Source of the DNA: Actinomycetes bacterium
GTDB taxonomy: Bacteria > Actinomycetota > Acidimicrobiia > IMCC26256 > PALSA-610
Direction: 5' to 3'
Assembly (NCBI GenBank): GCA_031404355.1
Contig: JANNHK010000018.1
Span: 1 to 62,276 of the forward strand
Length of the DNA stretch: 62,276 nucleotides
Shown here: positions 2-44,000 of the stretch, in pieces
Layout: every line of letters begins with the position of its first letter
How positions within the stretch are numbered: the first letter of the stretch is position 1
The notes under the pieces: model-generated
Seen by the model: the letters and a program-made list of their open reading frames with translations, nothing else
The model's database searches: none
Told to the model about the DNA's origin: nothing
Made by a program: the position numbers and the translations under genes

Positions 2-1087
2 CTCGGAGGCCGCCCGATGTTGCGCTTCATGCTGGATCGGCTCCGCGATCTCGAGTGTGCCGATGTCGTCGTCGCGACGAGCGACCTCGAACGCGACGAC
101 ATCGTCGAGGACGTCGCTCGAATCGCCGGGTTCGAGGTCGCTCGCGGTTCCGAGACCGACGTACTCGCCCGCTTCGTGGGCGCGCTCGACGGGCATCCGG
201 CCGAGCACGTCGTGCGGCTGACCGCGGATTGTCCGCTCGCGGATCCGGCGTTGATCGCGGCGGTGGTCGACCGGCACGTGACGTCGGTCGCCGACTACAC
301 GTCGAACGTGCTCCCGCGCACGTTCCCGAAAGGCCTCGATGTCGAGGTCGTGACGCGCGCGGCTCTCCTCACCGCGCACGCCGAGGCGACCGATTCCGCC
401 GAGCGGGAACACGTCACGCCGTTCCTCTACCGGCGCCCCGAACGGTTCCGGCTCGCGAACCTTCGTCATGGCGACCCGCTCGGGCGGGAACGGTGGACGG
501 TCGACACGGCGGCCGATCTGGAGTTCGTCCGCGAGGTGGTGGCGAGCATGGGACGCGATCGGTTCGCGTGGCAGGACGCGTGGGCCGCGATCGGTCCGCG
601 CGTTGCCGACGAACCGGGGGCGCCGGTCCTGTTCCCCGCGGCCGTCGAGCACGGCGCGTTCGTGCTCGCGTGCCGCAGCGACGAGGACGCGGTGCGGTGG
701 AGTAGGAGCGGCCGGGCCGTCGGCGTCGAGGAGCACCGGGCGTGGTACGGCCGGGCGATCGACGACCCCGGGATCCGGTTGCGGGTGGCGCGTATCGGCG
801 GCGAACTTGTCGGGACGGCCCGAGTCGATGTGCAGGGTGGTGTCGGCACCGTCGGTATCGCGCTCGCCGCCGAGTGCCGGGGCCGGGGCCTGGGCCGGGC
901 GCTACTCACCGCGCTGGTCGAGGACTGCGCCGACGACCCGCAGGTGGTGCGCCTCGACGCGACCGTCCATGCCGAGAACGGGGCGTCGCTCCGGGCGTTC
1001 GCCGCCGCCGGGTTCGTCACCATCGGTGACGACGGCGGCTTCCGAGTGCTGAGCCGCCCCGTGCACCAGCCGATAGAGGTGGCATGA
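2..1087 (+). CDS. Cytidylyltransferase (PseF/SpsF-like) fused to a C-terminal GNAT acetyltransferase (PseH-like); 5' end runs off the window
   Basis: The frame is open to the window edge, and 'GGRPMLRFMLDRL' is internal to this family. 'RLTADCPLADP' is the SpsF/CMP-sugar transferase motif. The C-terminal half has GNAT motif A, 'RGRGLGRALL'. Confidence 0.8.
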   Translation, partial: LGGRPMLRFMLDRLRDLECADVVVATSDLERDDIVEDVARIAGFEVARGSETDVLARFVGALDGHPAEHVVRLTADCPLADPALIAAVVDRHVTSVADYTSNVLPRTFPKGLDVEVVTRAALLTAHAEATDSAEREHVTPFLYRRPERFRLANLRHGDPLGRERWTVDTAADLEFVREVVASMGRDRFAWQDAWAAIGPRVADEPGAPVLFPAAVEHGAFVLACRSDEDAVRWSRSGRAVGVEEHRAWYGRAIDDPGIRLRVARIGGELVGTARVDVQGGVGTVGIALAAECRGRGLGRALLTALVEDCADDPQVVRLDATVHAENGASLRAFAAAGFVTIGDDGGFRVLSRPVHQPIEVA

Positions 1088-1155
1088 CAACCGTGCGGAC
1101 GCAGCGGAGGCCCGCCTGCCGCAGGCCCCTCGACCGGGAGCGGAGGGAGCCATGA
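1084..1155 (+). repeat. MIRU-like intercistronic repeat unit (72 nt) forming a 23-codon mini-ORF
   Basis: The ATGA at 1084-1087 overlaps the upstream stop. The ATGA at 1152-1155 overlaps the downstream start. It shares the blocks ACCGTGCGGACGCAG / GCCGCAGGC / GAGGGAGCCATG with the copies at 36807-36875 and 48821-48958. Confidence 0.6.
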
Positions 1156-2378
1156 CGAATCTTCATCCGGGCGTGGAGCGCGCGACCCAGGACGTGATCC
1201 GGAGTCGGGGCGCCGAGAAGCGACCGATCGTGTACTGCCGGCGGTGTCTCATCCCGGAGACGAAGCCCGACATCCTGTTCGACGCCGACGGTGTGTGCGG
1301 CGCCTGCGCGCACTACGCGGCGCGCACCGAGGTCGACTGGACCGTCCGGCGCGCCGAGCTGGAGCAGATCCTCGATCGCTACCGGTCGGTCGACGGCACG
1401 AACTACGACTGCGTGATCCCTGTCAGTGGCGGCAAGGACTCGACGACGCAGGCGATCCGCATGCTCGAACTCGGCGCGAACCCGCTGTGCGTCACGGCGA
1501 CGACCGACCAACTGTCCGAACTCGGCCGCCGCAACATCGAGAACCTCAAGTCGCTCGGCGTCGACTTCGTCGAGTACACGACGAACCCGGTCGTCCGCCG
1601 CCGCATCAACCGCCTCGCGCTCACGCAGGTCGGTGACATCTCGTGGCCCGAGCACGTCACGATCTTCACGCTGCCGATCCGCATCGCGGTGCAGATGGGA
1701 ATCAAGCTCGTCGTCTGGGGTGAGAACCCGCAGAACGAGTACGGCGGGCCCGCGGCGGCCGCGACCGACAACACGCTCACCCGGCGGTGGCTCGAGGAGT
1801 TCGGCGGCATGCTCGGTCTGCGCGTCAGCGACCTTGTGGGCCAGGAAGACATCGAGGCCAAGCACCTCGTGCCCTATACCTACCCGAGCGACGCGGATCT
1901 CGCCCGGGTCGGCGTCACCGGGATCTTCCTCGGCCACTACATGCCGTGGGACGGGCTCCAGAACGCGATCTTCGCGCAGTCGTACGGCCTCGAGACATAC
2001 CCGACGACGGTCGAAGGTTCGCTCTGCGACTACGAGAATCTCGACAACCACCAGACCGGAATTCACGACTACTTCAAGTTCTTGAAGTTCGGTTTCGGAC
2101 GCGCGACCGACATCGCGTCGACCCACGTGCGGCGAGACCGGTTGCGCCGGGACGACGCGCTGACCCTCGTCAAGCGCCACGACGGCAAGTTCCCGTGGAC
2201 GTATCTCGGAAAGTCGATCCACGACATCCTGGCCAACATCGCCATGACGCTCGACGAGTTCGTCGCGGTGTGTGACCGCTTCACGAACAAGCGCCTGTTC
2301 GTGACGGATCGGCACGGCGAACTGGTGCGCGGCGCCGACCACAACCTCACGAAGATCAACGACGACAACGTGGACTAG
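1152..2378 (+). CDS. N-acetyl sugar amidotransferase (WbpG/PseA-type, PP-loop ATPase)
   Basis: It has an N-terminal CxxC...CxxC, the PP-loop 'PVSGGKDS', and the classic context immediately upstream of hisH/hisF paralogs. Confidence 0.85.
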   Translation: MTNLHPGVERATQDVIRSRGAEKRPIVYCRRCLIPETKPDILFDADGVCGACAHYAARTEVDWTVRRAELEQILDRYRSVDGTNYDCVIPVSGGKDSTTQAIRMLELGANPLCVTATTDQLSELGRRNIENLKSLGVDFVEYTTNPVVRRRINRLALTQVGDISWPEHVTIFTLPIRIAVQMGIKLVVWGENPQNEYGGPAAAATDNTLTRRWLEEFGGMLGLRVSDLVGQEDIEAKHLVPYTYPSDADLARVGVTGIFLGHYMPWDGLQNAIFAQSYGLETYPTTVEGSLCDYENLDNHQTGIHDYFKFLKFGFGRATDIASTHVRRDRLRRDDALTLVKRHDGKFPWTYLGKSIHDILANIAMTLDEFVAVCDRFTNKRLFVTDRHGELVRGADHNLTKINDDNVD

Positions 2379-2383
2379 CGAAC

Positions 2384-3001
2384 GTGCAGCGGGTAGCTAT
2401 TGTTGATTACGGCCTGTGCAACCTCGACTCGGTGCGACGCGCGTTCGAGACCCTCGGTGCGCAGGCGTTCGTCACCGATGTCCCTGCCGAGCTCGCGCAC
2501 GCGGACCGGATCGTGCTCCCGGGCGTCGGCGCATTCCCCGATGCGATGCGCAACCTGCGGGCGCGGGGCCTCGACGAGGCGCTCGGCCTGCAAGTGCTCG
2601 AAGCGGGCGCGCCCTTCCTCGGCGTGTGCCTCGGGATGCAGCTTCTTGCCGCGCTCGGGCACGAGGTCGAGGAGACCAAGGGCCTCGGTTGGTTCGACGG
2701 CGACGCCACGCGGCTGGTACCAACGGTCGGAGAGCGGCGTGTGCCCCACGTCGGGTGGAACGAGGTGCGGCTCGCGCGGGATTCCCCGCTGTTCGCGGGC
2801 ATCCCGCCGGAGGCGGACTTCTACTTCGTGCACTCGTTCCACGTCGAGTGCGCGCACGACGACGACGTGCTCGCGACCACGCCGTATTGCGGCGGCTTCA
2901 CGTCGGCGCTCCAACGCGAGCACGTGTACGGCGTCCAGTTCCATCCGGAGAAGAGTCAGCGGTACGGCCTGGCGCTCCTGAAGAACTTCCTGGCCGTGTA
3001 A
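2384..3001 (+). CDS. hisH: Imidazole glycerol phosphate synthase glutaminase subunit paralog (glycan-cluster HisH)
   Basis: Class I glutamine amidotransferase: 'LPGVGAF', 'GVCLGMQLL', 'GVQFHPEKS'. Confidence 0.9.
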   Translation: MQRVAIVDYGLCNLDSVRRAFETLGAQAFVTDVPAELAHADRIVLPGVGAFPDAMRNLRARGLDEALGLQVLEAGAPFLGVCLGMQLLAALGHEVEETKGLGWFDGDATRLVPTVGERRVPHVGWNEVRLARDSPLFAGIPPEADFYFVHSFHVECAHDDDVLATTPYCGGFTSALQREHVYGVQFHPEKSQRYGLALLKNFLAV

Positions 3002-3010
3002 CGGGCAGGC

Positions 3011-3754
3011 ATGCTGAAAACAAGGGTAATTCCGACGTTGTTGCACAAGAGTTGGGGGCTGGTGAAGGGCACCCAGTTCGATTCGAGACGCTCGGTCGGC
3101 AGCCCGATGCCGGCGGTGAAGGTGTACAACCTGCGCAACGTCGACGAGTTGGTGTTCCTCGATGTCGCGGCAACGACGGAAGGGTGTGGCCCCGACTTCG
3201 CCCTGATCGACGAACTGGCCGACGAGTGCTTCATGCCGCTCGCGGTCGGCGGCGGCATCCGCACCGTCGACGACGTGCGCAAGCTGCTCTCGGTCGGTGC
3301 CGACAAGGTCGTCATCGGCTCCGCCGCGGTGGAGCGCCCGGAGATCGTGCGCGAGGCGTCCGATCGGTTCGGCGCGCAGTGTGTCGTCGTGTCGGTGGAC
3401 ACGAAGGACGGCGTCGTGTGGGTTCGGTCGGGGACCGTTCGCACCGAGCGCGGCCCGGTCGCGTTCGCGCGTGAGATGGAGCGGATGGGAGCGGGCGAGA
3501 TCCTGCTCCAGTCGATCGAACGCGACGGCATGATGGAGGGCTACGACCTCGAGACGATCGCGAGCGTCGCGGCGGCGGTGTCCGTACCCGTCATCGCGTC
3601 GGGCGGCGCGGGGCGCTTCGAGCACATGCGCGACGCGCTGCGGGCGGGCGGGGCCTCGGCGGTTGCCGCCGCGAGCATGTTTCATTTCACCGAACAGACG
3701 CCGATGGAAGCGAAGAAGTACCTCGCGGCCGCGGGCATTCCAACCCGGGTGTAG
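3011..3754 (+). CDS. hisF: Imidazole glycerol phosphate synthase cyclase subunit paralog (glycan-cluster HisF)
   Basis: HisF-like barrel motifs: 'RVIPTLL', 'VDELVFLDV', 'AVGGGIRT', 'PVIASGGAG'. Confidence 0.9.
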   Translation: MLKTRVIPTLLHKSWGLVKGTQFDSRRSVGSPMPAVKVYNLRNVDELVFLDVAATTEGCGPDFALIDELADECFMPLAVGGGIRTVDDVRKLLSVGADKVVIGSAAVERPEIVREASDRFGAQCVVVSVDTKDGVVWVRSGTVRTERGPVAFAREMERMGAGEILLQSIERDGMMEGYDLETIASVAAAVSVPVIASGGAGRFEHMRDALRAGGASAVAAASMFHFTEQTPMEAKKYLAAAGIPTRV

Positions 3755-4890
3755 ATGCAGGAGGGTCCGAACGCCATGCAGATCTCCGTCGTGAGCGACT
3801 CGCCCGAGTTCCAAGTCACCGACGACCTCGCGCTGCTCGACGCGATGCTCGACGACCTACGCGCCGCCGACGAGGTGTGGCAACCCACGAACTACTGGTC
3901 GAGGTATACCGACGAGACGATTGCGCGCCTCCGTTCGGGCCTGCACGACTTCCGGCGCGCGCGACCGATGGCAACCTCGGACGCTTCGGGGCGACGGATC
4001 CGCCGCCCCGCCTGGTGGCGCGGATTCGGTCGCAGGACGAGCGCCTGGCGTCCGCCCTCGACGACGCGGTCAGTCAGGTAACGCGCGCGGTCGTCGAGGG
4101 CAGGCAGCTCTTCGAGGGTGGCCCGACCCTGGTCGACATCTTCGAGTCCGGGTATGAGCGCTGTCTCCGGGCCGCGGCCGAGCATCCGGCGATCGTGTCG
4201 ATCGAACGGCTGTCGGTCTCGCGAGCCGGGAACCCGTTCGGGTTCCTCGTCGACGACCGATTCCTCACCGCGTCCGCGCTCAACTACTACCTGCGCTACG
4301 CCTACGTCGCCGCCCGGATCGATCTCGAGACCGTCGACACGGTCATCGAGTTGGGATCAGGCGCGGGCCGCCAGGCCGAGATTCTCGCAACCCTGCACCC
4401 GAACCTGGCGATCGTGCAGCTCGACTTGGCACCACAGCTGTACGTGGCCGACCGTTATCTCAACGCGGCGCTCGGCGACCGGGTGATCCCCTACCGAGCG
4501 ACGCGCGGGGATGGGCCGCTGCAGCCGCAACCCGGAAGCGTCGTGTGCGCGGGCAACTTCCGCGTCGCCGACGTGATCGACAGTGGTCGCACCCTGTTCT
4601 GGAATGCCGCGAGCTTCGGCGAGATGGAGCCCGACGTTGTGTTGAACTACGCGAAGCATGTATCGCAGTTCTCCGACTGGCTGTTCCTGCATCAGTGCTT
4701 TGCCGGCAAGGAGCGGGGCCGGGTCGGTGGAGGCGGAGTGCTGCGCCAGATCCGGATGGCCCACTACGAGGGATTCTTCGCGGACTACGAGCGGGACGAC
4801 GTGCAGCCGGCGCACGCGGGCTTGTACTGGCTCGTCGAGGGAGCGCATCGCTACGACGACTCGTTCTGGACGCGCCGAAGCGCGGGTTGA
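3755..4890 (+). CDS. SAM-dependent (putative sugar O-) methyltransferase, apparently frameshifted near 3955-3963
   Basis: The N-terminal part, '...WQPTNYWSRYTDETIARLRSGLHDFRR', is in frame 2 (ORF 3755-4081). The rest, 'ATDGNLGRFGATD...VIELGSGAGRQ...', is in frame 1 (ORF 3877-4890). The switch falls in the alternating run gcgcgcgcg. Confidence 0.6.
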
Positions 4891-4904
4891 GTCCGGGGGG
4901 CAGG

Positions 4905-7900
4905 TCAACGCCCGGCGCGGCGGGTCTTGCGGGCGCGGACGAGGATGATGCCGACGGCGAGGAGTAGCAGACCGACGAGCAACTGGGCGCGGGCATCGGA
5001 ACCGGTGCGGGGCAGGCTCGGACTCGCGGTTGCCTGAGCGGCGGTCGCCGTCGTGGGCGCCGGCGATCCGGCGACGGTCGTCGTCGACCCCTGGACCACG
5101 AGCGGCGCGCCGGTGGTTGTCGTTGCGCCCGCCGCGGCGGCCACCGTGGTCGAGGTCGAGGTCGAACCGGGCGCGGTGGTCGATGTCGATGTCGGCGGCA
5201 CGGTCGTCGTCGATGTGCTTGTGCTCGTTGTCGTCGGCGGAACGGTGGTCGTCGTCGTGCTCGTGCTGGTCGTCGTCTTCGGCACCGTCGTCGTCGACGT
5301 GCTGGTGCTCGTGCTCGTCGTCGTGGGCGGCACCGTCGTGGTCGTCGTGCTCGTACTCGTCGATGTCGTGCTCGACGTCGTGCTGCTCGTCGACGTGGTG
5401 GTGCTCGTCGACGTGGTGGTGCTCGTGCTGGTCGACGTCGTTCCGTTGGGCGTACCGCCGATGATGTCGGTCGGGGTCGAACGCCTCGTCGTTGACGAGG
5501 CCGGGGTCGTCGCCCGTGTGCGACACGCTCGCGCCGTTCACGACGGAGTCGGGTGTGTCCTCGGCGACGATCACCTTGACCGTGACCGTCGCCGTCTCAC
5601 CGACGCCCAGCGGGTTGACGTTCTGGCACTTGACCACGCCGATCAGGTTGCACGCCCACCCGAGTTCGGCGTCCCAGTCGTAGAACTCGAGCCCGGGCGG
5701 CAGCGTGTCGATCACCTCGAAGCCGTCGACGGCTTCCGGCCCGAGGTTTTCGACCGTGATCTCGTACTCGTGCACATTGCCGCGCTCGAAGTCCCCGGTA
5801 TGCGTCTTGGTGATCGCGAGGTCCGCGTTGGCCTTGGGCGGATCGCCGCGCACGGTCAGAGGAGCGGTTGCCGTTCCGCACCCGCCGTCGTCGTCGCACA
5901 CCTCGACCGTGAGCGTGTAGTCGCCGGGTGCCGGATAGACGAAGCCCTCGGCGAGGGCACTGGTGCCGAACCCGAGACCCGAGCGACCGACGGGGAACTC
6001 TTGCGGCCCGGAGCCTTCGCCGTAGTCGACGGTCGCGGTCCACTCGTCGGCGCCGGGGTCGACGAAGCTCACGTCGGGAACGAACACGTAGCCATTCGGG
6101 ATGTCGTACGGCCCGCCCGCTTCGACGACGGGTACCACATTCGTGAACGTCACGGTGTGGTCGTCGGTGTCCTCGAGGTTCTGGCTGTCCCAAACCTTCA
6201 GGCCGACGTTCACGACCGCGTCGTCATTGCGCGTGACCGAGAGTGGGTTCGTGAACGGCGCGTCGGCGTAGTTGCCGTCGCCGTTCAGGTCCCAGTCCCA
6301 GATGCAGCACTGGTTCTCCGGGTCGCTCGACAAGTCCTTGTTGAGCTGCACCGTCGAACCTTCGGGTGCGGTCGTCGGCCCGCTGATCACCGCGGTCGGC
6401 GGCTGCGGCACCGCGACCGTGCGCGAGAGCGTGATCGTCGCCACGTTCGAGTAGCGGTGACCGTCGCCGGCGATGTAATGCACCTTCTTCTCGAACGATC
6501 CCGAGTACTGGACGCCGATGGACACCGGGGTCGTGACATCACGGGAGCCGCCGTCGTCGAGCAGCGTGTACTTGAGTGTGTCGCCTTCGGGGTCGGTCGC
6601 CGACAACGTCACGGGTATCGAGAGCGTGTTGTTCGGTACCACGAGCGTCACGTCGACGGCCGTCGGTGCCTGGTTCGTGTTCGTGGCCAGCGCGAAGTCG
6701 AGCACCGCGTTGTCGTCGGGGTGGATCGTGACGGGTTTCGTCTGGCTGAACAGCAGCTCCGTTTCCGGCCGCAGCGCGGTGACGTTCCACGTGCGGGCAG
6801 TCGCTTCGCCTGCCATCGGTACGGTGGGGAACACGTAGTGCCCGGCGGCGTCGGTGGTCGTGACTGCGCCCCACTCGCCGCCGACCGTGGCGCCCACGAC
6901 CGGCGTACCGTCCGCCGCGCGTGTGACGGTGCCGCTGACGGAGGCGGTGCCCGTGTTCGCGCTACCGAAGTCGAGCGTGATGTTTGCCCCGCAGAAGACG
7001 GTGACGCTGCGTACCGCAGTGATGAAGCCCGACTTCTGCGCGAAGACCTGCACCGCCCGCGGCTGATTCTGGTGCGGGACGATGTTCGGAATCGTGAAGC
7101 GGCCGTCGATGTCGGTGAGCGGATCCGGGAATGGCGTCACGCCGGGGATCGAGATTGACGCGCCCGGAAGCGGCGCACCGGTCGCGGCGTTCAACACCCG
7201 ACCGCGGATGGTCGCGTTCCCGCACTCGCGGAACAAACGAAGGGTGACCTCGACGAGCGCGTTCGGCATGATCGTCACGGTTTTTCCGGCGCCGAGGTAC
7301 CCGGGGAAGTTCGCGGAGACCGTGCGGTTCGTCGGGGCGTTGTTCGCGAGGTTCTGGTGCGGGTAGTCCCTCTTCCCGTCGAGGCCGACGCGCGAATCGG
7401 TCTGTCCCGTCACCGGGTCGGCCAGGCCGACGACGTCGGCCATCGGAAGCGGGTCGCCGGTCACCGCGTCGACCACTGTGACCCTGACGTCGCCGTACAA
7501 CTTGCGCACCATCGTCGCGTCGACGGTGGTCGTCTGGCCGTCGAAGATCTTTGCGCTCTTGCCCGTCGGGATGTACTCGTTCATCGCGGCGGTGCCCGGC
7601 CCGAAACTGACCGAGATGTCGCGGTCGGTCGGCCCGTCAAGGCCGAACACGCCCTCGAAGGAGTACCGGCCGTCGGCATCGGTGAGGCCACTGCCGACGT
7701 AGGTGCCGACGAGGATGTCCTTGAGCGGCTCACCGGTGACCGAGTCGGTGACGCGGCCCTGCACTGTGGCGCGCCGTTCGACCGGCTTGTGGATGACGAC
7801 GTCGGCGATGCCGAGTGAACCGCAGTCGAACAGTTTCCCGGATCCGAACGCGGAGTACTGCACTCCGGCGATGGTGATCGACGCCGACACGCCGAAGCCG

Positions 7901-10900
7901 GTCGATGAGTTCTGCTTGCCGAGGCTGATGCCGTCGAGGCGGACTCGCCCGTTTGGCCCGGTGACGCCCGAGGCGAACGAGTGCTCGTTGCCGGCACCCA
8001 CGGCCGCGCCCGCGATCGGGAGCCGCGTCGTTTCGTCGAGCACGCGTACGTCGGCCGAGCCGTAACACCTCGGAATCAGCGCGACGACCGCGTGCGGGGT
8101 GGCGGTCTCGGTGATCAGGAACGGGCCGGCACTCTTGCCCCAGTAGCCGTCGATGACAGCCGCCGCCGACGCACCGAGCGGCCCGTTATTGGGCGGCGAG
8201 AGCGTAAACCCGTCGAATGCGAAGGTGCCGTCGGCGGCTGCGTCGCCCGATCGGCCCTCGAAGCCCGCGCTGATCGTGACGTCGGCGCCGGGCAGAGGGG
8301 TGTTCGTCGGTGTGATCGTGCGGTTCTCCGTGTGGTTGATGGGATCCGGCGTGCCCACGACGACCCGCCCGGTGATGCCACCGCTGCGCTGCTTCAGGAT
8401 GCGGAAGTCGTGGGTGGTGACGACGTCACACGCGGCGGGGGCGGACTCGAACGTCTTGAAGTAGCCGGCCTTGGTGACCTCGTAGGTGGCCGACGCCGGC
8501 GAGTTGCCGCTGCCGAGCGGAATTTCGACGAGACGAAGGAGTCCGCCGGCGTCGGTGACCTTGCCGTTGATGAAGGCGCCCTGTACCGGCGCGCCGGTTT
8601 CGAGGTCGTAGACGTGTACGTCGAGGGTGCCGAAGCACAGCGGGACCAGGCCGAAGTCGACTTCGACCGTGCTCGCGGTGTCGTGTTCGACGCCGTCACT
8701 TGTACCCCGTATGACGATCGGTCCCGAGAACTCGGGAGCGGTCGGTGCGGCCGTGATGTTCACGAATCCCCACTGGTCGGGCGTGAGCACGGGGGGCGTG
8801 AACGTCGCGGTGATCCCGGGCGGCAGGTCGGGTGCCGAGAGCGCGACGGGCTTGTCCCAACCGCTGGTGGTACTCGCGTTGATGTTGAGCGCGACGTTGC
8901 CGCCGGGGCGTACGACGACACTCGACGGCGTCAGGCCGATCGAGAAATCGCGCTTGAACCTGATCGTGATGGGATCGATCGCGAACGCACCGACCTCGTC
9001 CCGGAACACGACACCGACGGTGTAGTCCGTCCCGGGCGCGCACGCACCGCCGCACAACTTCTCGTCCATGGCCTCGGCCGTAAGCGTGTCGAGAATGTCG
9101 ACCGCAGGATCGAGGATGCCGTCGCCGTCGATGTCGAAGCCGGGCACCGACAACGGGCCGAATTCGGGGTCGAACGAACCACTGATGTCGATCTCGAGGT
9201 CGTCGCCGACAAGCACTTCGTACGGACCGTGTGCTTCACCGACGGGCGGTTCGTTGGCAACGACCCGGAACGGCGCAATCGTTCCCACGCCCGGTCCGCC
9301 CGGGAGCGGGAGCACGGTGACCGTCATCGAGTAGTCGCCAGGAGCGTGGTCGACGATGATGCGCTTGATCGCTACGCCGCCGATGCCCGTTGTTGCCGTG
9401 GTTGTGAACGTCCCGAACGCGAACTCCACGACGCGGCCCGTGACCGGTGCGCCGTCTGCGGTCGTGACGTTCGCGGCGAACGTGGCTGCGCCGCCGCGCT
9501 GGACTTCCGTGTCGCCGGTGTACACCACGTTCGGCGGGACGCCGATACCGCCGACATCGAGGTGCATCGACGCCGTCACCGTTCCGAACTTGTCGGCGAG
9601 CATCGTGAAGCTGCCGGGGTCGAGGTAGGTGACGTGCGTGGTCGCGTTCACGGCAACACCGAATGGCAATCGACCGTCGCCGGTCTGGATCTTCACGCCA
9701 CCGGGCGAGCGGTTGATCACGACGATGTCGTCGCCCGCGTCGGGCGTGACGTCGGAGACGGTGAACGCGCTGACCGGCGTCGCCGGGTCGACGAACGCGG
9801 TTCGGCCTTCGGCACGGCTGCCGACCCATGCCTTCGTCTCGGTCGGAGGCTCCGAGCCCGGGTACCCGGGGTCGATCGGGTCGATGCTGGGCTCTTCGAG
9901 GTCGGGCGGAAGTTCGGGGCAGTCGACGACCGACCCGTACATCACGACCCACAGCGTTCCGTGGCTCGTGCCGATGCGGGCGATGCCGATGGAGTTCCAC
10001 CGCGGATCGAGCTGGTTGATGTTGTGGAGGTCGGAAACCTTCCACGCGATGAGCGCGCCCGATGCCGCGCGCGGGCCACGCGCGAGGTTCTCGCCGACGA
10101 CCCCGGTCGGGTAGTCGGCGGCGAGGGCGCGTTCGGACGGCGTGCTGCCGTCTTCGCCGATGTGCTCGAACGCGTCGTTGTCGCGGAGCCAGCGGGCGTG
10201 CTCGAGCGCGGCGTCACTGAGTGTCGGCGACGGGTAGACCCGGTGGCGGCCGTTGGCGACGCGGTACTGGCTCACGAGGTCGACGAAGTCCTGTTCGCCG
10301 GTGTCGAGCTTGACGCCGTAGTCGCAGGCCGGTGCGGGCTCAGTTTCGGCTTCGGTGTCGGGCTCGACAACTTCGTCCGGCTCCTCGGCGTCGCCCACCT
10401 CGACCTTGATCTTCTTCGTGTGCGACCCGCCGTCCTTGTCGGAGACCTTGACGCTCAGTGTGTGCTTGCCGTCGGGCACGTAACCGAGTTCGAGTGTCGC
10501 CGCGCCGGCGGGAATAGCGCGCGCGTCGTAGAACGGCATCCCGAACGTTCCGTCGGCATCCCACGACAGCTGGAGGGTCAGCGCTTCTTGGTCGCGTTCG
10601 CCCGGGTCGAAGAGACGCAAGGGGACCTTGACCGACTGGCTGTTCTTGAACGTCACGTCGTCGCCGTCGGCTTCGGGTGCGACGTTCGTGACCGTGACGT
10701 TGATCTCGTGCGTGTCGGAAACTCCTCGCGAGTCGGTGACCTTCAGTGTGACCTGGTACGTCCCGTCGTCGCCGTACACGTGGTCGGGGTTCGGGAGCAC
10801 GCTGCCCGAATCGTCGCCGAAGTCCCACTCCCACTCGACGATGTCGTAGTTCGGGTCTTGCGACGCGTCGAGGAAGTGGTTGACCGCGCCTTCCTTGGTG

Positions 10901-13900
10901 GTGACCCAGTCGCGCGCGATCGCCGCGATCGGCGGAGCCGGCGGGCTCGAGCAGTCGGGGAGCTCGAGGTCGTCCGCGGTCACGTCGGGATCGTCGGTGA
11001 TCGTGGCGACGAAGCGGTACTTCGTGTGCGCCTCGCCCAGGTCGCGGTCGTCGCCGATGACTTGGTCGAAGGGCGCAAACTGCTCGGTCAGTGCGCCGCT
11101 GCAGTAGTGGTACGTGTTCCAGTCGTCGCCGTCCGGGCGCGTGAACACGATCGACTGTTCGAGGTCGTTGCCGACTCGGAATGCCGAGGAACCCAGCTCG
11201 CGTTCCGCGAGCGCGAGCGGGCCCATGAAGTAATTGAGCCGAGTGCAGCCGACGCCGACGTCGTTGATGCAGTCGACGGAGTCGAGCGGGTGGTACGGGT
11301 AGTCGATCGCGCTGACGTCGCCGAGGTCGAAGACTTCGATGCGATCTTCCTGCACGTCGAACTGCGTGTTTGCGAACGGCTGCTCGTCGTGCGGTGTGCC
11401 GTGCTCGTCGTGGGAGTCGACGACGTAGCCCCCGACCCATTGGTTCTCGACCGTGCGGTGCTTGATCGGTATTTGCTCGATGAAGCTGCCCGTGTTCTCG
11501 TCGCCGTCGCCGAAGACCACGTGGAGGTCCGCCGTGAACTTGCCCGAGTTCACCGTCTCGGTGAGCCGCGCGCTCGGACGGCCGCGCGGGTCGACCGCCA
11601 TGGGGGTGAGGCTGCCGGTGCGCTCGATCACGGTCGGCGCGTTCGACGTGTACTCGGCGACGTGGTCGCTGAACACGGTCCGCTCCTCGATCTTGTGCCA
11701 GTCGTCGGTGACCTGTTCCCACCTGTAGATGAGGTGCGGCTCGTGGTCGATCTCGATGATGCGCGAACCGCGGATGGTCTGCGTGACCGCACCGCCGGTG
11801 CCCTCGATCGTCACCTCGGCGAGCACCTTGACGTGCTCGACGTCGTCGCCGGCGTTCAGGGTGACGGTCGCGCGACCGCTGTCGTCGGTAGTCGCGGTCG
11901 GAGCCGAGATCGTCGCGTCGCTCGGCGTCTCGTCGGAACGCTTCACCGAGAACGTGACGGCCACGTCGTCGACCGGGTCGGCGTCGCACTTCAGGAACTG
12001 GGCGTGCACCTTGGTGCTGTCGCCGGAGCCGGCCGCGAGGTCGGAGTCGGTCGCGGTCACGGTCAACGTGGGGAAGCACAGGTCGATGCGCTGGTCCTGA
12101 CCGTGCTTCAGCGTCGTGAGCTCGAGCGTCGTGTCGACGGGCCGGCCGTCGACCGTTGCGTGTCCAATCACCTCGATCGGTTGGCCGGCGTCGACGGTCG
12201 GAACGGTCACGATCCGCGCTCCGCCGCGCCGGGTGATGGGGGCCGCCGATGCCTGCGTGCGCGTCGTGCCGTAGCGGACTTCGATGTCGACGCTGGTGGC
12301 GCCGGCGTTGAACATCGCGTCGGCGTGGATCTCGAGATCACCCGACTTCACGAGGTTCGGCAGGTCGCTCGCGCCCCATCCTTCGGAACCGGTTTCGAAC
12401 CACCGTTGGAACGCGGCCAGGTCGGTCACCGATTCGGGCGCGCCGCCGTTGCCGATCGGGATCGGCTCGGCGCGGGTCAACGTCAGGACGCCGTCGCCGT
12501 TCAGGTCGAAGCGGGACCAGTCCTCTTCGCTGCGGCACGAGTCGGAGAACACGCAGCCGTCGTAGTTGAGGTCCTTCTTCGGGTGGTCGACGACGCCGTC
12601 GAGCCCGATCGTCGATGCCGCCGGGCAGCCCTCGATCCCGCCTCGCTGCATGCACGCTTGGAGCAGTGCGTCGCGGAACCGCCGGAAGTCACGCATATCC
12701 ACGTGGCCGTCGGGTGCCGAATAGATGGGGCCGAGGGGCGACGTCGGCCCCCGCGTCGTATCGACGGTCTCAGTCCCGTTGGGGCCGCGGATGATGCGCC
12801 GGTTCCCGTCGGCCGACGAGTCGCTGAGGTCGGCGGCCTCGTACAACCCACCCATTATGAGGAGAGAGTTGTACGCGTCGATCCGCGGTGCGCTCGGCGG
12901 TATCGGCGGCAAAGGAGGCCCCGGAATCCCGATCGGGCGCGCACCGCCGATGATCGCGGCGCGGATGTCGCCAACGCTCGCGGCCGGCCGGAACGCGGCG
13001 AGGTAGCCGGCGAGTGCCGCGACGTGCGGAGCGGCCATTGACGTTCCGCTCTCGCCTTGGTAGCCGTTGCACGGCGGCCCGCCCTTGAAGCACAGCGCCT
13101 GCGGCGGGTAGGTGCTGACGATGCCCGAACCGGGCGCCGAGACGTGGCCGCCGTAGTTCGAAAAGTCCGAGCGCACGGCGCTCTTCGTGTTCGACTCGAC
13201 CATAAGGATCGGGTTCGCGCGCCCGCTCGTCCAGTTTGCGCTCGCGTACGCGAACGCGTGGAAGTTCTTCGTGTCGACCTGCGTGAGCTTGAATCCGCCC
13301 GTGCACGGCGGCGTGATCGTGACCTCGCCGTTGTCGCAGATGCTGTCACTGTCGTTGCCGGCTGAGATCGTGAGCAGCACGTTCTTTTCGGACGCGATTT
13401 CGGCGACGCGGCGGGCCATCACGCCTTCGGCGGCGACGTCCTTGAGGACGACGTCGGACGTGTTGGGCGTACACGGACCGTGGAGTGCCCCCGCGTCGTC
13501 GTTCGCCCCGGGCCCGCAGTGGTCGAACTTGTGATTGTTGCCCCATACGGCGTCGTTGGATGGCTCCGTGCGGGTCAGGACATAGCTCGCGCCGCTCATC
13601 GTGATGACGCGCGCGTTCGGGAAGTCTCCGCTCGGTTTTACTTCGGCGAGCATCTCTGCCCACGCGGGCCAGTTGGTCGACCTCGACCCCGAGCCCGCAA
13701 CCGAGTCGTCGGAGATGTTGAACTGCCCGTTGCGGTAGTTGCCGTGCCACGACACCAAAGACATGCGCGCCACCGGATTGCCGCCGCTGATGCCGAGCGT
13801 TCGGCTCTGCACCGCCGACGCATTGTCGAACGTTGCGCCGACGGTGCCCGCGACGTGCGTGCCGTGTTCGCGCCGCTCCGGGTTCTTCGGGTTGCGCGTG

Positions 13901-14895
13901 CACAAGACGACCGCCCAGCGGCAGACGTCGACGACGGTCGCGTTCAGATCGGGGTGGGCCTCGAAGCCGGAGTCGTACACGATGGTCTGCACCTGAGGGT
14001 TCTTGAGCCGTAGGTGGTCGAGGACGTTCCACGCGTTCGGGAAGTTGGCGTCCTTGAGGCCCCAGTTGCCCCCGACGCCGCGTGGCGCGCCGCCGAACCC
14101 GTCAGTGCGGATGTCGTCGGCCCACGTCCAGTCCGTGAGTACCGGCGGCACCGGGTCGGCGGGCTGGACCGCCGCGGTCGTCCCTGACATCGCGTCGAGC
14201 ATCGCGGCCTCGATCGCGGGGTGGGCGCGCAGCTGCTCGATCGCGAACGATACGGGTGCGAAGTCGCCGACCGCGGGTGACGGAACAACCTGCAGCACCG
14301 CCGCGTTCAGCGGCTCGATCGTTCCGATGACGGTCAGGTTCGTGATGGCCAGCGCGTTGTTCACCATTTCGACCGTCGCGTCGTTCTTGAAGGCGACGAT
14401 GATGCGCGACCGCGACGCCCAGATACCGACGGGGTGGTGATCCATGTCGGCGACGGGTGCGACGGCGATCTCGGGGATCTGACTGGCGATGGTCGCGTTG
14501 GACGCGCCCGGCATGTCGAGCAACCCGACCGAGAGGACGCCGATGTGGTCGGAATCGTTTGTGGATGCGAACTCCCACGATCCAGTCGTCCCGATCGCGA
14601 GACCGAACCCGCCGCCGGGCGGAATCGGGCCGGAGTCGAACAGCTCCTCGACCGACGTGACCGTCTGCACCGTGCCGGACTCGTTCGTGAACTCGACCGT
14701 CTGGCCGACCGAGAGCGTGACCGCCGGCGGCGCGTAACCGTCGGGCGTGATGACCACGTGGACCGGTTCCGGCACCGGCCGCGGTGCGGCCGCGGCGGGC
14801 TTCGCCGGTTGGGCGAGTTCGAGTCCGCTGAACGCGAGGGCGCCCACAAGCGTAATCGCCGAGATGCGCCGGGTCAGGGTCGTCCGCGTCGTCAT
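4905..14895 (-). CDS. Giant (~3,330 aa) secreted, sortase-anchored multidomain subtilisin-like (S8) protease/adhesin; needs a 1-nt frame correction at ~5473-5476
   Basis: A GGAGG lies 9 nt upstream of the ATG at 14895, followed by signal peptide 'MTTRTTLTRRISAITLVGALAFSG'. Domains read by eye: cupredoxin-like fold, I9-like propeptide, S8 triad (DSG / HGTHVAG / GTSMAAPH), PKD repeats, a CAP/SCP domain, many CarboxypepD_reg-like repeats and DUF11. The Thr/Ser linker and LPRTG signal are in the frame of ORF 4905-5333. Confidence 0.85.
4908..5015 (-). other. Cell-wall sorting signal (LPRTG, hydrophobic segment, basic tail)
   Basis: 'LPRTGSDARAQLLVGLLLLAVGIILVRARKTRRAGR*'. LPRTG is encoded at 5001-5015. 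Confidence 0.75.
5016..5470 (-). repeat. Thr/Ser/Pro-rich low-complexity stalk built from degenerate nucleotide repeats
   Basis: 'TPNGTTSTSTSTTTSTSTTT...TTVPPTTTSTSTSTSTTTVPKTTTST...' with reiterated units of about 45 nt (e.g. cgtcgacgtggtggtgct twice at ~5389-5424). Confidence 0.7.
9934..10326 (-). other. CAP/SCP (cysteine-rich secretory protein-like) domain inside the giant protein
   Basis: '...LVSQYRVANGRHRVYPSPTLSDAALEHARWLRDNDAFEHIGEDGSTPSERA...GENLARG...IGIARIGTSHGTLWVVMYG'. Confidence 0.7.
12975..13995 (-). other. Peptidase S8 catalytic domain of the giant protein
   Basis: Asp in 'VYDSGFEAHPDL' (~13972-13974), His in 'HGTHVAGTVGA' (~13864-13866), Ser in 'GTSMAAPHVAALAG' (~13039-13041). 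Confidence 0.85.
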
Positions 14896-14952
14896 GCGGG
14901 CAGCCTCCGCCCGGCGCGTTAACCCGCCCGTAACGCCTCGGAAGCCCCGCTG

Positions 14953-16047
14953 TCAGCGGAGGGCAGCCCCCAACGCCCGCACGACGGCGGCCTGCTGGGC
15001 GTCGGTCAGGTCGGGATACATGGGCAGCGACAGGAGCCCGGCGTACGCCTTCTCCGCCTCGGGGTGGTCGCCGGGGCGGCAGCCGAGGCGGGCGTAGACC
15101 GGGTGCACGTGGATGGGTACGTAGTGCACCTGCACGCCGATACCCGCCTCGCGCATGGCGTCGTAGACGTCACGACGGCCGACTCCACCTTCTGTGGGAA
15201 CCCGGATCGGGAACAGGTGGTACGCGTGGCGGGTGCCGACCGGTGCTTCGGGCGGGAGTTCGACGGGCAGCGGCGCGAGCAGCTCGCGGTAGCGATCGGC
15301 GATTTCGTTCCGGCGGGTGACAAAGCGTTCGAGCTTCGTGAGTTGCGACGTGCCGAGCGCGCATTGCAAGTCGGTGAGCCGGTAGTTGTAGCCGAGCTCT
15401 TCGATCTCGTAGTACCAGCCACCCTGCTCGGGGTGCGGCACCGCACCGTGGGAACGGAACTGCCGCAGGCGCGCTGCGAGCTCGTCGGAGTTGGTCGTCA
15501 CCGCGCCACCCTCACCCGAGGTGATCGCCTTCACCGGATGAAACGACAACGTGCACATGTCGGAGTGCGCGCAGTTCCCGACCGGGCCGTCGGGCGTGGA
15601 CGCGCCGAGCGCGTGCGCGGCGTCCTCGACGACAACACGCGGCCGGCGGGGCAGCGCGGCGAGGTCAACGGGCAGTCCGGCGTAGTGCACCGCGACGAGC
15701 GCGTCGCACTCGCGCACCGCGCCCGGGTCGAGGTTGAGTGTCTTCGGGTCGATGTCGACGAACCCGGGTGTCGCTCCGACGTACAGCGCACAGTTCGCGC
15801 TGGCCGAGAACGACAACGGCGACGTGAGCACGCGGTCGCCGATACCGATGCCCGCGGCCCACAACGCCGCGTGCAACGCGGCCGTGCCGTTCGCGAAGAC
15901 GACTGCGTGACGGGCGTCCGTTGCGCCGCGCAGTGCGTCCTCGAACCGTTCGACCGCGGGCCCCGTCGTCAGCCAGTCGCTGCGCAACGTGTCGACGACC
16001 GCCTGGATGTCGTCCTCGTCGATCGATTGCCGCCCGTACGGGATCAC
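14953..16047 (-). CDS. pseC: DegT/DnrJ/EryC1-family PLP aminotransferase (UDP-4-amino-4,6-dideoxy-sugar transaminase, PseC-like)
   Basis: 'MIPYGRQSIDEDDIQAVVDTLRSDWLTTGP', 'SFHPVKAITSGEGG' (PLP lysine). It is adjacent to pseB. Confidence 0.85.
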   Translation of the reverse strand: MIPYGRQSIDEDDIQAVVDTLRSDWLTTGPAVERFEDALRGATDARHAVVFANGTAALHAALWAAGIGIGDRVLTSPLSFSASANCALYVGATPGFVDIDPKTLNLDPGAVRECDALVAVHYAGLPVDLAALPRRPRVVVEDAAHALGASTPDGPVGNCAHSDMCTLSFHPVKAITSGEGGAVTTNSDELAARLRQFRSHGAVPHPEQGGWYYEIEELGYNYRLTDLQCALGTSQLTKLERFVTRRNEIADRYRELLAPLPVELPPEAPVGTRHAYHLFPIRVPTEGGVGRRDVYDAMREAGIGVQVHYVPIHVHPVYARLGCRPGDHPEAEKAYAGLLSLPMYPDLTDAQQAAVVRALGAALR

Positions 16048-16062
16048 GCGATTCTCATGCGG

Positions 16063-17118
16063 CTACGAGCTCCGGCCCTCGATCACGATGCGACCTTGAC
16101 GGGACCGTCCGGGCCTCCGCTCTGCGCCTGGCCCGGTTGCAATTCGCCGAGCATGGCTCGGAGTTCGGGGGACGGTGAGCCACCAGTCGTTCGTGTCGCT
16201 TGCGTACACGAAGCCGTCTGGCATCTGCGTTCCGAGCTGGCCCGGGCCCTTGGCGTCCCACCACGGGTGTTCGGGGAGCACCACGTAGGTGTCGCCCGCG
16301 TCGATCGTGTGGCGCGACTCGTCGCCCGTGATCATCAACTCGTGCAGCTTCTCACCGGGACGGATGCCGACGATCTCGCGGGGCACGCCCGGCGCGATCG
16401 CCTCGGCCAGGTCGGTGACCCGCATCGACGGGATCTTCGGGATGAAGATCTCGCCGCCCTCCATGTGGTCCAGCGCGTGCAACACCAGGTCGACCGCTTG
16501 CGGCAGCATGATCCAGAACCGCGTCATGCGCTCGTCGGTGATGGTGATGCGACCCTCGGTCGCCATCTGCCGGCAGAACAGCGGCACGACCGAACCGCGG
16601 GAACCGACGACGTTGCCGTAGCGAACACACGCGAGGCGGGTGTCGCGCTGGGCCGCGTACGCGTTGCCCTGCACAATGATTTTCTCCTGGCACAGCTTCG
16701 TCGCTCCGTACAGGTTGACGGGGTTCACGGCCTTGTCGGTCGAGAGCGCGATGACGCGCGGCACCCGAGCGTCGATGGCCGAGTCGACGACGTGCTGGGC
16801 GCCGAGCACGTTTGTGCGCACTGCCTCGAACGGGTTGTACTCGCACGCGGGGACCTGCTTCATGGCGGCCGCGTGGATGAGGATGTCGGCGCCCTCGGCG
16901 GCGCGCGACATTCGGGCGCGGTCGCGTACGTCGCCGATCAGGTAGCGCACCTGGTCTTCGCCGAAGCGGGTGCGGAGTTCGGATTGCTTGAGCTCGTCGC
17001 GGGAGTACACGCGCACGACGGCGTCGGGCCAGGTCGTGGTCACCCGTTCGATGAATGCGTTGCCGAACGAGCCCGTGCCGCCGGTGAGCAGGATCGTTGA
17101 GCCGTTGAGGTCCGTCAC
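16063..17118 (-). CDS. pseB: UDP-N-acetylglucosamine 4,6-dehydratase (inverting), PseB/FlaA1/CapD-like
   Basis: 'ILLTGGTGSFGNAF', 'STDKAVNPVNLYGATK' (SDR YxxxK), 'RYGNVVGSRGSV'. Confidence 0.85.
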   Translation of the reverse strand: MTDLNGSTILLTGGTGSFGNAFIERVTTTWPDAVVRVYSRDELKQSELRTRFGEDQVRYLIGDVRDRARMSRAAEGADILIHAAAMKQVPACEYNPFEAVRTNVLGAQHVVDSAIDARVPRVIALSTDKAVNPVNLYGATKLCQEKIIVQGNAYAAQRDTRLACVRYGNVVGSRGSVVPLFCRQMATEGRITITDERMTRFWIMLPQAVDLVLHALDHMEGGEIFIPKIPSMRVTDLAEAIAPGVPREIVGIRPGEKLHELMITGDESRHTIDAGDTYVVLPEHPWWDAKGPGQLGTQMPDGFVYASDTNDWWLTVPRTPSHARRIATGPGAERRPGRSRQGRIVIEGRSS

Positions 17119-17124
17119 GAGGAC

Positions 17125-17151
17125 TCATCGGCATCGGGGCCGGGGCGTTGA
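17125..17151 (-). promoter_or_regulatory. Candidate sigma-28/WhiG-type promoter for pseB-pseC (and possibly the giant gene); would give a near-leaderless mRNA
   Basis: Minus strand reads TCAA-N15-GCCGATGA (consensus TAAA-N15-GCCGATAA). The -10 box ends 6 nt before the GTG at 17118. Confidence 0.35.
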
Positions 17152-17184
17152 GCGCCCCCCGCCCGAATACCGCGGCCGATGACC

Positions 17185-17211
17185 GAAATATCGGCGGGAA
17201 ACGGCCGATGA
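17185..17211 (+). promoter_or_regulatory. Candidate sigma-28/WhiG-type promoter for the Pse-associated methylase gene
   Basis: GAAA-N15-GCCGATGA (3/4 and 7/8 to TAAA-N15-GCCGATAA), 45 nt upstream of the ATG at 17256. Confidence 0.45.
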
Positions 17212-17255
17212 GAACAGGGTTCGAACCTGGCTGCGACGACGAACAGAGGTGCGAC

Positions 17256-17867
17256 ATGACCACCGAGACCGAGCGCCTGGAGGGGCTGTGGTCGGGCGAG
17301 TTCGGCGACGAGTACGTCGACCGGAACCTCGGCTCCTACGAGGTCCGCGCCCCGTTCTGGCGGGCGCTGACCGACGAGTTGGCCCCGGCCGGCGTGCTCG
17401 AGGTGGGTTGCAACGTCGGTGGCAACCTCCAGTGGATGGCGGGGGCCGTCCCGCCCGAGCAGACGTTCGGCGTCGACGTGAATCGCAAGGCGCTGGAGTT
17501 GATGGAGGCCCGGATTCCGGGCGTGCAGGCGGTGCTGGGTTCGGCCCGGACGCTTCCGTTCGACGATGCCTCGATCGACCTCGTCTTCACGATGGGTGTG
17601 CTCATCCACCAGCCGGAGGAGTCGCTCCCGGCTGTGATGGACGAGATGGTTCGGGTGAGTCGTCGCTATCTGTTGTGCGGCGAGTACTTCGACACGAGCA
17701 CCGTCGAGGTGGCGTATCGCGGCCACGAGGGTGCGCTCTTCCGACGCGACTACGGCGCGCTGTTCGAGTCGCGTTTCCCGGATGAGCTCGAGTTCGTGCG
17801 GAAGGGCTTTCTCGGTCGCGATGCCGGTTGGGACGACATCACGTGGTGGCTGTTCCGGCGGCGTTGA
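17256..17867 (+). CDS. Pseudaminic acid biosynthesis-associated SAM-dependent methylase
   Basis: The start was moved to the ATG at 17256 (AGAGG 8 nt upstream). 'VLEVGCNVGGNL' is methyltransferase motif I. 'DLVFTMGVLIHQ' and the tail 'ITWWLFRR' are typical of this family. Confidence 0.8.
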   Translation: MTTETERLEGLWSGEFGDEYVDRNLGSYEVRAPFWRALTDELAPAGVLEVGCNVGGNLQWMAGAVPPEQTFGVDVNRKALELMEARIPGVQAVLGSARTLPFDDASIDLVFTMGVLIHQPEESLPAVMDEMVRVSRRYLLCGEYFDTSTVEVAYRGHEGALFRRDYGALFESRFPDELEFVRKGFLGRDAGWDDITWWLFRRR

Positions 17868-19578: not shown

Positions 19579-19654
19579 GGCTGTTCAATCGGCCGGAATG
19601 ACGATCCCGTAAGGCCCCGGAGGCGCGCTCAGGCGCCAGACTCAGGCGCCAGAC

Positions 19655-24175: not shown

Positions 24176-24387
24176 CTTTGAGCGGGCGCCCCCGTACTCA
24201 CTGTGAGTGAGTCGGCAGCGCTCGTGTTTTCGGCGCCGTGGCCACCGTGCTGTAGGCCGAGCGGCCCATTTCACGTTTTTGCCTACGGATCGCCCCGGGC
24301 CTGCCGACGCACGCCCCCGCCGCACGCCCAGGGCCGGCGGGGCCCTTGGGCGGGGGGAGGTGGCGAACCCGACGACCGGGCGCGCGA

Positions 24388-24418: not shown

Positions 24419-24465
24419 AGCCGCTACGGCCCGCCCGCTTCGGTGCTTACTGCCTGCTCGGTTTC

Positions 24466-43994: not shown

Positions 43995-44000
43995 ATACAA

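Follow-up and report, generated by a model that had tools for sequence, protein, structure and literature searches.

The locus and its reading frame

The DNA analysed here, called the window throughout, is a stretch of 62,276 nt (62 kb; G+C 67-71%) from an actinobacterium, and the element in question is a giant gene of about 10 kb on its minus strand, which encodes a predicted wall-anchored protease of 3329 residues. Profile matches place this gene, as the initial annotation of the window had done from the sequence alone, inside an island of flagellin-glycosylation genes for pseudaminic acid (Pse), with pseB and pseC on one side and the WbuX, HisH, HisF2 and methyltransferase genes on the other. 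The giant gene starts at the ATG at 14895, with GGAGG 8 nt 5′ of it, and its GC and GC3 are the same as those of the rest of the window, so that composition shows no foreign origin.

4905..14895, minus strand: giant gene, 3329 aa after one base of the C4 run 5473-5476 is dropped
5473..5476, minus strand: frameshift site, C4 in the window vs C3 in the same-strain Logan contig L085

In the unedited window no single open reading frame (ORF) covers 4905-14895. The mechanical ORF runs from 14895 to 4357 (3512 aa), and over its last ~370 residues ACC/ACG/TCG repeats are misread as a His/Asp/Arg-rich sequence. The Thr/Ser stalk and the LPRTG motif of the protein are found in the +1 frame of the window and this +1-frame tail ends at the stop at 4905; therefore the interval 4905-14895, which had been annotated as one gene, gives the coordinates of the true gene with two frames silently joined. 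The ~10-kb minus-strand gene thus stands, but not as a single ORF, since the frame break at 5473-5476 had been missed. The two frames join at 'gcgttcgaCCCCgaccgac', and deletion of one C from the 5473-5476 run gives ...NDEAFDPTDIIGGTPNGTTSTS... and a continuous protein of 3329 aa. A GC3 frame plot of the window revealed no further obvious frame breaks.

The same strain could be compared through three short-read Logan contigs from run SRR20217199 (L085, L001 and L121), which were obtained by exact-protein look-ups; such look-ups for orf108, HemC and FlaA found no contigs. L085 (3859 bp, window 2064-5925) differs from the window by two indels and no substitutions, as it is without the extra base at 5473-5476 and without one GC unit of the GC run 3955-3963, and in it the C-terminus of the giant gene is one continuous ORF. 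An intact allele of the giant gene is present in the same strain. The second indel, a 2-nt (GC) insertion, splits the O-methyltransferase gene of the window into ORFs 3755-4081 and 3877-4890; this gene is intact in L085 (377 aa) and a single ORF in the relative L005. L001 (2455 bp, pseB′-pseC-giant N-terminus) and L121 (3159 bp, window 42786-45944) together hold three substitutions and no indels. A consensus error, or else a minority allele, is the likeliest source of the frameshift in the window; two one-unit repeat expansions against three substitutions look more like the former than like natural variation. Programmed +1 frameshifting was rejected, given the same-strain allele without the extra base and homologues that are single ORFs.

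It is conceivable, at odds well below even, that both frameshifts are real, in which case the stalk and LPRTG would be lost, the protein would be secreted, unanchored or degraded, and the Pse O-methyltransferase would be inactivated, either by gene decay or by contingency-like on/off variation of surface and glycan genes within the population. Each indel lengthens a short repeat by one unit (C4 for C3, and an additional GC), they fall within 1.5 kb in two adjacent accessory genes, and the 5.6 kb compared elsewhere, with 0 indels and 3 substitutions, indicate that the assemblies are not the same consensus; repeat-tract frameshifts are moreover known in Campylobacter flagellin-glycosylation genes. 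However, slippage at a high rate would need far longer tracts than these, and the ratio of two indels to three substitutions is implausibly high for natural variation, whereas consensus errors in homopolymers and short tandem repeats typically produce it. The same-strain alleles, as well as orthologues and homologues, are intact, and the out-of-frame extension continues into the methyltransferase gene and reads it in antisense.

Domain organization of the giant protein

Domains were called on the frame-corrected protein with Pfam and NCBIfam profiles at curated cut-offs. Peptidase_S8, three copies of PKD_4, CAP, CarboxypepD_reg and DUF11 matched above the Pfam cut-off, and Big_9 was also called. 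From the N- to the C-terminus the protein reads as follows:

14788..14895, minus strand: signal peptide, residues ~1-36, read by eye (basic TRR, hydrophobic stretch, Ala-rich cleavage region)
14518..14769, minus strand: cupredoxin-like beta-sandwich without Cys, residues ~43-126, weak sequence matches
14191..14418, minus strand: I9/fervidolysin-like propeptide, residues ~160-235, Fervidolysin_NPro-like at E 0.0087, below the Pfam cut-off
12931..13998, minus strand: subtilase S8 catalytic domain, residues ~300-655, PF00082, D308/H344/N514/S619
12481..12714, minus strand: Cys-paired module PDGxVDMRDFRRFRDA...DLNYDG...DLNGDG, residues 728-805, two strongly conserved Ca-loop-like motifs
10966..12480, minus strand: middle region, family-specific and defining for the family, residues 806-1310; a weak Big_1 is the sole match in Pfam and PDB sequence searches
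10396..10938, minus strand: PKD / Big_13-like pair, residues 1320-1500 (Pfam)
9937..10284, minus strand: CAP/SCP domain, residues 1538-1653, PF00188, 44.9 bits vs cut-off 21.1
8656..9855, minus strand: conserved Ig-like-looking region, residues 1681-2080, no Pfam call, DIDGDG loop at 1921
6694..8628, minus strand: seven CarboxypepD_reg-like beta-sandwich repeats, residues 2090-2734 (Pfam)
5851..6675, minus strand: Big_9/cadherin-like domain and PKD domains, residues 2741-3015 (Pfam)
5482..5823, minus strand: DUF11, residues 3025-3138 (Pfam)
5019..5459, minus strand: stalk rich in Thr (47%) and Ser (20%), read in the +1 frame of the window
4908..5015, minus strand: sorting signal with LPRTG (5001-5015), hydrophobic helix and RARKTRRAGR tail

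The N-termini of homologues align with the putative signal peptide, and a regular expression for the YSIRK motif ([YF]S[IL]RK) has no match in the first 60 residues. Export of this 3329-aa multidomain protein by the Tat route, considered for the 'TRR' in its signal peptide, was judged unlikely. The beta domain that follows has weak matches to Cupredoxin_1 (E 0.0096, not reaching the cut-off) and to the Cu nitrite reductase 9cck (E 1e-3), and two family members match Cupredoxin_1 clearly (8.5e-6); it contains no Cys, therefore no type-1 copper site is possible. For the propeptide stretch 163-234 an AF2 model, taken for its secondary structure only (pLDDT 63-84 there), gives the order beta-alpha-beta-beta-alpha-beta, and the fervidolysin N-pro domain is matched in 3 of 14 family members.

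The S8 domain (Peptidase_S8, PF00082) reaches 72.8 bits against a cut-off of 21.8 over residues 306-652. Its triad D308 (VYDSG), H344 (HGTH) and S619 (GTSMA) stands in order and is, together with the oxyanion N514 (AGND), invariant in five homologues. The domain is distant from solved subtilases, with thermitase as the best PDB match (E 2e-8), and carries long insertions relative to subtilisin. The DLNYDG (775) and DLNGDG (797) loops of the Cys-paired module are likewise invariant in homologues. These loops had been annotated as EF-hand/dockerin-like, and they are indeed present, but Pfam made no dockerin or EF-hand call at E < 0.01 in the giant protein; the homologue P0009 has Dockerin_1 and EF-hand_5. 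PDB sequence searches with residues 701-1310 and 1681-2080 gave no match, and the CAP domain matches 4ifa, an SCP-domain protein, at E 0.0026.

The sorting signal has the order LPRTG, LLVGLLLLAVGIILV, RARKTRRAGR and is present only in the frame-corrected reading; the tail scores 21.5 vs 15.9 with NCBIfam TIGR01167 and 20.4 vs 20 with Gram_pos_anchor (PF00746). The architecture that had been read by eye (Cys-less cupredoxin-like domain, I9-like propeptide, S8 triad, PKD, CAP, CarboxypepD_reg, DUF11, stalk and LPRTG) is thus borne out, nearly all of it by Pfam and NCBIfam, save that seven CarboxypepD_reg-like repeats are counted within 2090-2734 where roughly ten had been announced.

A family of giant S8-CAP proteins

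In a word-indexed search the N-terminal 900 residues had only 11 homologues, with 49% identity for the best, and the CAP region had one; a metagenome scan yielded 32 loci. The order N-domain, S8, middle region, PKD, CAP, 1681-2080 region and CarboxypepD_reg repeats is kept in L087, L088, L090, L095, L097/L099 and L002 (tblastn), and L097 contains an intact ORF of 3799 aa with S8, PKD, CAP, seven CarboxypepD_reg repeats and LPRTG. When the middle region (690-1310) was searched exhaustively with HMMER and the family counted in clusters at 50% identity, 257 cluster representatives were recovered at E ≤ 1e-3, of which 153 reached ≤ 1e-10 and 58 reached ≤ 1e-30; lengths of 2000-5800 aa are common among them, with the middle module at about residue 650-1100. 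S8 is found in 13 and CAP in 10 of the 14 full-length representatives, therefore S8 together with CAP is a conserved family core, not a singular fusion. The combination, which the initial annotation had called unusual, is so only against characterised proteins, but within this sizeable family 10 of the 14 full-length members combine both. The family of giant wall-anchored S8-CAP proteins is undescribed but widespread.

Sorting signals recur across it, i.e., LPRTG in L097, L101 and L086, LPFTG in L002, LPATG in L103 and Gram_pos_anchor in P0014, a conservation that lends indirect support to a sortase in the genome; a look for the sortase TLxTC signature in the flanks of the homologue loci gave nothing convincing. 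At L086 (9992-15900, plus strand) a relative was met that starts at CAP (the equivalent of residue 1543) and is without the S8 half, and that continues with CarboxypepD_reg, Big_9, PKD, DUF11, stalk and LPRTG. It adjoins a frameshifted type I secretion/RTX locus, with several assembly frame breaks and uncertain boundaries. The surroundings of the family members vary, and none of the ~40 homologue loci with flanking DNA has pse or flagellar genes nearby:

L002: mfd, enolase, ppx
L003: further sugar genes, encoded on the other strand
L004: regulators
L086: type I secretion system
L119: rplJL on one side, rpoBC on the other
L120: beside an SNF2 helicase, in the same metagenome-assembled genome (MAG) as L005, on another contig

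The Pse and flagellar neighbourhood

14953..16047, minus strand: pseC, TIGR03588, 442.5 bits vs cut-off 423.5
16063..17118, minus strand: pseB, TIGR03589, 451.1 bits vs cut-off 407.75
17256-17867, plus strand (opposite pseB): Pse-associated methylase gene, between the TPR gene and pseB
17839-19578, minus strand: TPR protein of 579 aa, N-terminal TPR repeats, C-terminal half of ~330 aa without Pfam match
3755..4890, plus strand: sugar O-methyltransferase, NanM-like, converging with the giant gene, from which 14 nt separate it

Upstream of the giant gene and on its strand are encoded a FliA/WhiG sigma factor (25808-26692), two flagellins, fliD, fliS, the 579-aa TPR protein, pseB and pseC, and beyond it lies a convergent plus-strand operon with a PseF/H-like fusion, WbuX, HisH, WbuZ/HisF2 and the NanM-like O-methyltransferase. 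The gene of the TPR protein stands between fliS and the pse genes, in the same position as in relatives, and by size and architecture, not by sequence comparison, its product, the candidate glycosyltransferase of the island, resembles FlmG. FlmG of Caulobacter (596 aa) is a cytoplasmic Pse transferase of flagellin, whose TPR domain confers flagellin specificity (PMC7591256).

Two further observations concern genes elsewhere in the window. An RsiG-like protein (PF22802) is encoded at 48267-48824 (plus strand), at a distance of ~22 kb from the gene of the FliA/WhiG sigma factor. In Streptomyces, WhiG has RsiG as its anti-sigma factor, which depends on c-di-GMP, and the RsiG-like protein occurs here in a flagellated relative. 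A 737-aa ORF at 54412-56625 (plus strand), just upstream of hemA-hemC-hemD, joins an AMP-binding enzyme domain (9-358) to a complete Rex-type redox repressor (Put_DNA-bind_N and CoA_binding, 525-697), and may be a genuine fusion or the product of another assembly indel that joined two genes.

Insertion at the pseC 3′ junction

Relatives of the island were collected by a PseC scan of species-representative genomes; they are uncultured Actinomycetota with PseC 59-89% identical and include bins labelled Acidimicrobiia, Microthrixaceae and Ilumatobacteraceae. Closest among them is L005 (MAG P2IB.169, PseC 89%), where pseC and the methyltransferase gene converge over a 39-bp spacer with no giant gene, and WbuZ, HisH, WbuX and PseF/H come next with 71-83% identity. 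In L008 and L019 pseC also leads straight to the convergent operon with no giant gene. Synteny thus answers in the affirmative whether the giant gene is an insertion into an otherwise contiguous Pse island. Past the pseC stop only ~7 nt are common to the window and L005, therefore the giant gene with a leader of ~48 nt is a lineage-specific insertion at a variable junction. No mobile-element remnants were seen when the sequences at the junction were inspected, a repeat search not having been run.

Other relatives carry other genes at this point. L007 (PseC 73% identical) has, just 3′ of pseC, a secreted trypsin-like S1 protease (11139-12101, plus strand) and then a DUF2510 gene, and L022 has a STAND/LuxR regulator with an adenylate-cyclase domain at the pseC 3′ junction. 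Across these flagellin-glycosylation islands, the comparison marks the 3′ end of pseC as a hot spot at which the cargo varies. A second, divergent WbuX/WbuZ/HisH paralogue set (35-50% identity) with a paralogue of the TPR protein was observed in L005 at 31-4039, directly upstream of pseC, where it replaces pseB, which means that the islands are highly plastic.

The flanking Pse proteins of the window and L005 are 65-89% identical. The MAG of L005 does have a member of the giant family, P0013 (at L120), which is 49% identical to the window protein and collinear with it over 2040 residues, and which lies elsewhere. The initial annotation, which proposed a coupling of the giant gene to flagellar and Pse genes, had itself named occurrence outside any glycosylation context in close relatives as a finding against this idea, and the closest relative keeps P0013 away from an intact Pse island; therefore coupling is contradicted on the annotation's own terms.

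Transcription signals

14896..14952, minus strand: spacer of 57 nt between the pseC stop and the ATG of the giant gene, with the GGAGG ribosome-binding site
17125..17151, minus strand: sigma-28-like motif TCAA-N15-GCCGATGA, ending 6 nt before the GTG of pseB
17185..17211, plus strand: mirror sigma-28-like motif GAAA-N15-GCCGATGA, upstream of the ATG (17256) of the Pse-associated methylase

The initial annotation had placed the giant gene 57 bp after pseC on the same strand with no convincing terminator, and this holds: the spacer measures exactly 57 nt, contains no terminator-like site and no sigma-70-like promoter match, and folds unremarkably (z = +0.5). Folding at the 3′ junction was not unusual either. 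A scan of 14000-20000 returned no sigma-70 match and two terminator-like matches, both on the plus strand and inside genes.

The sigma-28-like promoter candidate at 17125-17151 was recovered as well. A loose first scan found GCCGAT to be very common in the GC-rich window (125 matches), therefore the full bipartite pattern TAAA-N15-GCCGATAA was relied on, allowed ≤2 mismatches on both strands of the 62-kb window and compared with shuffles. It has two matches in the window vs 0.31 expected (4 of 100 shuffles reach two), and both are located in the 137-bp divergent intergenic region of pseB and the methylase gene (17119-17255), each facing its gene. The same region holds two more GCCGAT boxes (17175, plus strand; 17195, minus strand). 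The distance of only 6 nt between the motif and the GTG of pseB suggests a leaderless or near-leaderless mRNA. As judged from the motif, the sigma-28-like pseB promoter is a credible candidate.

At flaB a related motif, TACA-N16-GCCGAA(A/T), is conserved between the window and L022 (TACA-N16-GCCGAAAA and GCCGAATC). The upstream element of the second flagellin gene reads CCTACAG-N16-CCGAAAAC in the window (24240-24270, minus strand) and CCTACAG-N16-CCGAATCA in L022 (~2390-2420), and the CCTACAG-N16 element may be this clade's version of the FliA promoter. The first flagellin gene has a different conserved box, ATCCGGCGC ... CGA(A/C)CAGG. Between the two flagellin genes lies a GC-rich palindrome, ggggcgggccttgggcccgcccc (window 24385-24425, minus strand), which is probably a terminator or attenuator; it has no T-tract and is therefore invisible to a simple terminator scan.

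The 57-nt gap, the spacer without terminator or sigma-70 match and the sigma-28-like motif make it plausible that the giant gene is co-transcribed from pseBC by read-through. A transcription unit of its own, with a promoter located in the spacer or the 3′ part of pseC and with regulation apart from pseBC and sigma-28, is a possible alternative that we consider doubtful. Homologues elsewhere stand alone with their own upstream regions, which in L089 and L090 exceed 100 nt and contain TTGACC boxes, a region that the window copy does not have; the non-homologous leader of ~48 nt arrived with the gene, and consensus scans capture actinobacterial promoters poorly. Yet no sigma-70-like match was found in 14000-20000, no TANNNT/TTGAC-like pair was seen on inspection of the spacer, and across so short a gap without a terminator a degree of read-through would be expected anyway.

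Relation to known systems

Among the nearest known analogues are the Gram-positive cell-envelope proteases (CEPs), whose dual protease/adhesin logic and features have been described (PMC9082167). Like ScpA/ScpB C5a peptidase, SpyCEP and lactocepin PrtP, the giant protein combines a putative signal peptide and pro-sequence and an S8 domain with many Ig/Fn-like domains in a row, then a linker that is flexible and of low complexity and a C-terminal LPXTG signal. Unlike them it has no YSIRK signal, is two to three times larger, has no PA domain in S8 and no fn3 (Pfam, E ≤ 0.01), and adds the Cys-less cupredoxin-like N-domain, the Ca-loop module, PKD, CAP, the seven CarboxypepD_reg repeats and DUF11; its host is an environmental high-GC actinobacterium and not a Firmicute pathogen. 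By analogy, the best-supported view is that the protein would be CEP-like in working and outside the CEP family.

With fervidolysin-type subtilases it shares the weak N-pro match and an S8 domain followed by beta-sandwich domains, whereas fervidolysin is ~70 kDa and without CAP, stalk and LPXTG. Its CAP domain resembles bacterial CAP/SCP proteins (4ifa; YkwD-like), with H...FxH and GEN...W..S..H motifs that align with 4ifa, but the known bacterial CAP proteins are small, secreted and of unknown function, whereas here CAP sits mid-chain in a 3329-aa wall-anchored protease. The surrounding island is like the flagellin glycosylation islands of Campylobacter, Aeromonas, Geobacillus and Clostridium, and that of Caulobacter with FlmG, in its pseB, pseC, PseF/H-like, WbuX/HisH/WbuZ acetamidino, methylase, NanM-like and TPR genes, and in that the Pse genes adjoin fliS, fliD, two flagellin genes and fliA. 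To our knowledge, no described flagellin glycosylation island includes a giant sortase substrate, and the islands of the window's relatives are likewise without one.

Interpretation

We read the product, with a probability of about 0.7, as a sortase-type wall-anchored subtilase/adhesin of ~350 kDa, which belongs to a conserved and so far uncharacterised family, the giant S8-PKD-CAP-CarboxypepD_reg proteins of uncultured Acidimicrobiia-like Actinomycetota, and whose gene is a lineage-specific insertion with probable read-through and without a role in flagellin glycosylation. From homology and known domain families we infer how such a protein would work, i.e., export, autoprocessing, wall anchoring, projection of a rod and proteolysis. 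The putative N-terminal signal peptide would direct Sec export, and the I9-like propeptide would assist folding of the S8 domain and then be removed by the protease itself. A sortase would cleave LPRT|G and join the protein to peptidoglycan, the Thr/Ser stalk would span the wall, and the ~20 beta-sandwich domains would form a long rod that holds the active S8 protease, the Ca-binding module and CAP far from the cell, where protein degradation or attachment to particles are the likely roles.

Several points weigh against this interpretation. No sortase was found among the genes scanned in the 62-kb window. The AF2 model, which covers residues 1-900 and was built on a 5-sequence alignment, is poor (mean pLDDT 40), so the folds lack structural confirmation. 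The two indels lie in short repeats of two adjacent accessory genes, with the 5.6 kb elsewhere indel-free, and could be real variants. A promoter may also lie within the 3′ end of pseC, and the secreted protease of L007 at the very same junction is either a coincidence or a hint of a link.

Such a link was at the heart of the initial annotation, which took the product for a Pse-glycosylated surface protein or a motility-coupled adhesin/protease. Functional coupling, with the stalk O-glycosylated by pseudaminic acid or with a protease/adhesin of the motile phase co-expressed via sigma-28, draws on the position of the gene on the same strand 57 nt after pseC with no terminator-like site between, on the sigma-28-like motif pair, which the window scan found only in the pseB/Pse-methylase intergenic region, and on the FliA/WhiG sigma factor and RsiG-like protein encoded in the window. 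The stalk is moreover 67% Thr+Ser, and L007 also has its trypsin-like protease just 3′ of pseC. The comparative evidence nevertheless makes coupling improbable, since the gene is missing from the site in L005, L007, L008 and L019, and the ~40 homologue loci, without pse or flagellar neighbours, occupy unrelated contexts (mfd/enolase, rplJL-rpoBC, SNF2 helicase, type I secretion system). The candidate glycosyltransferase of the island is FlmG-like, and FlmG is cytoplasmic and flagellin-specific through its TPR domain (PMC7591256), so that a Sec/sortase substrate would require another glycosylation route. Still less credible is a co-opted insertion in which the protein serves as a motile-phase surface factor from the sigma-28-like pseB promoter, its stalk is decorated with Pse and both indels are real on/off variants of anchor and glycan methylation.

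The predicted wall-anchored protease is thus probably under the sigma-28-like promoter by read-through, its position behind pseBC being a consequence of the insertion site and no evidence for a role in flagellin glycosylation. As comparative evidence does not support a link to Pse or motility, the biological surprise of the locus is modest. Its meaning lies in the family, a sizeable and unstudied one of uncultured Actinomycetota, with at least 150 clusters at 50% identity and members 2-5.8 thousand residues long. In Acidimicrobiia-like bacteria of soil and freshwater these proteins are probably major surface proteases/adhesins, and they provide a context in which the role of bacterial CAP domains can be asked.

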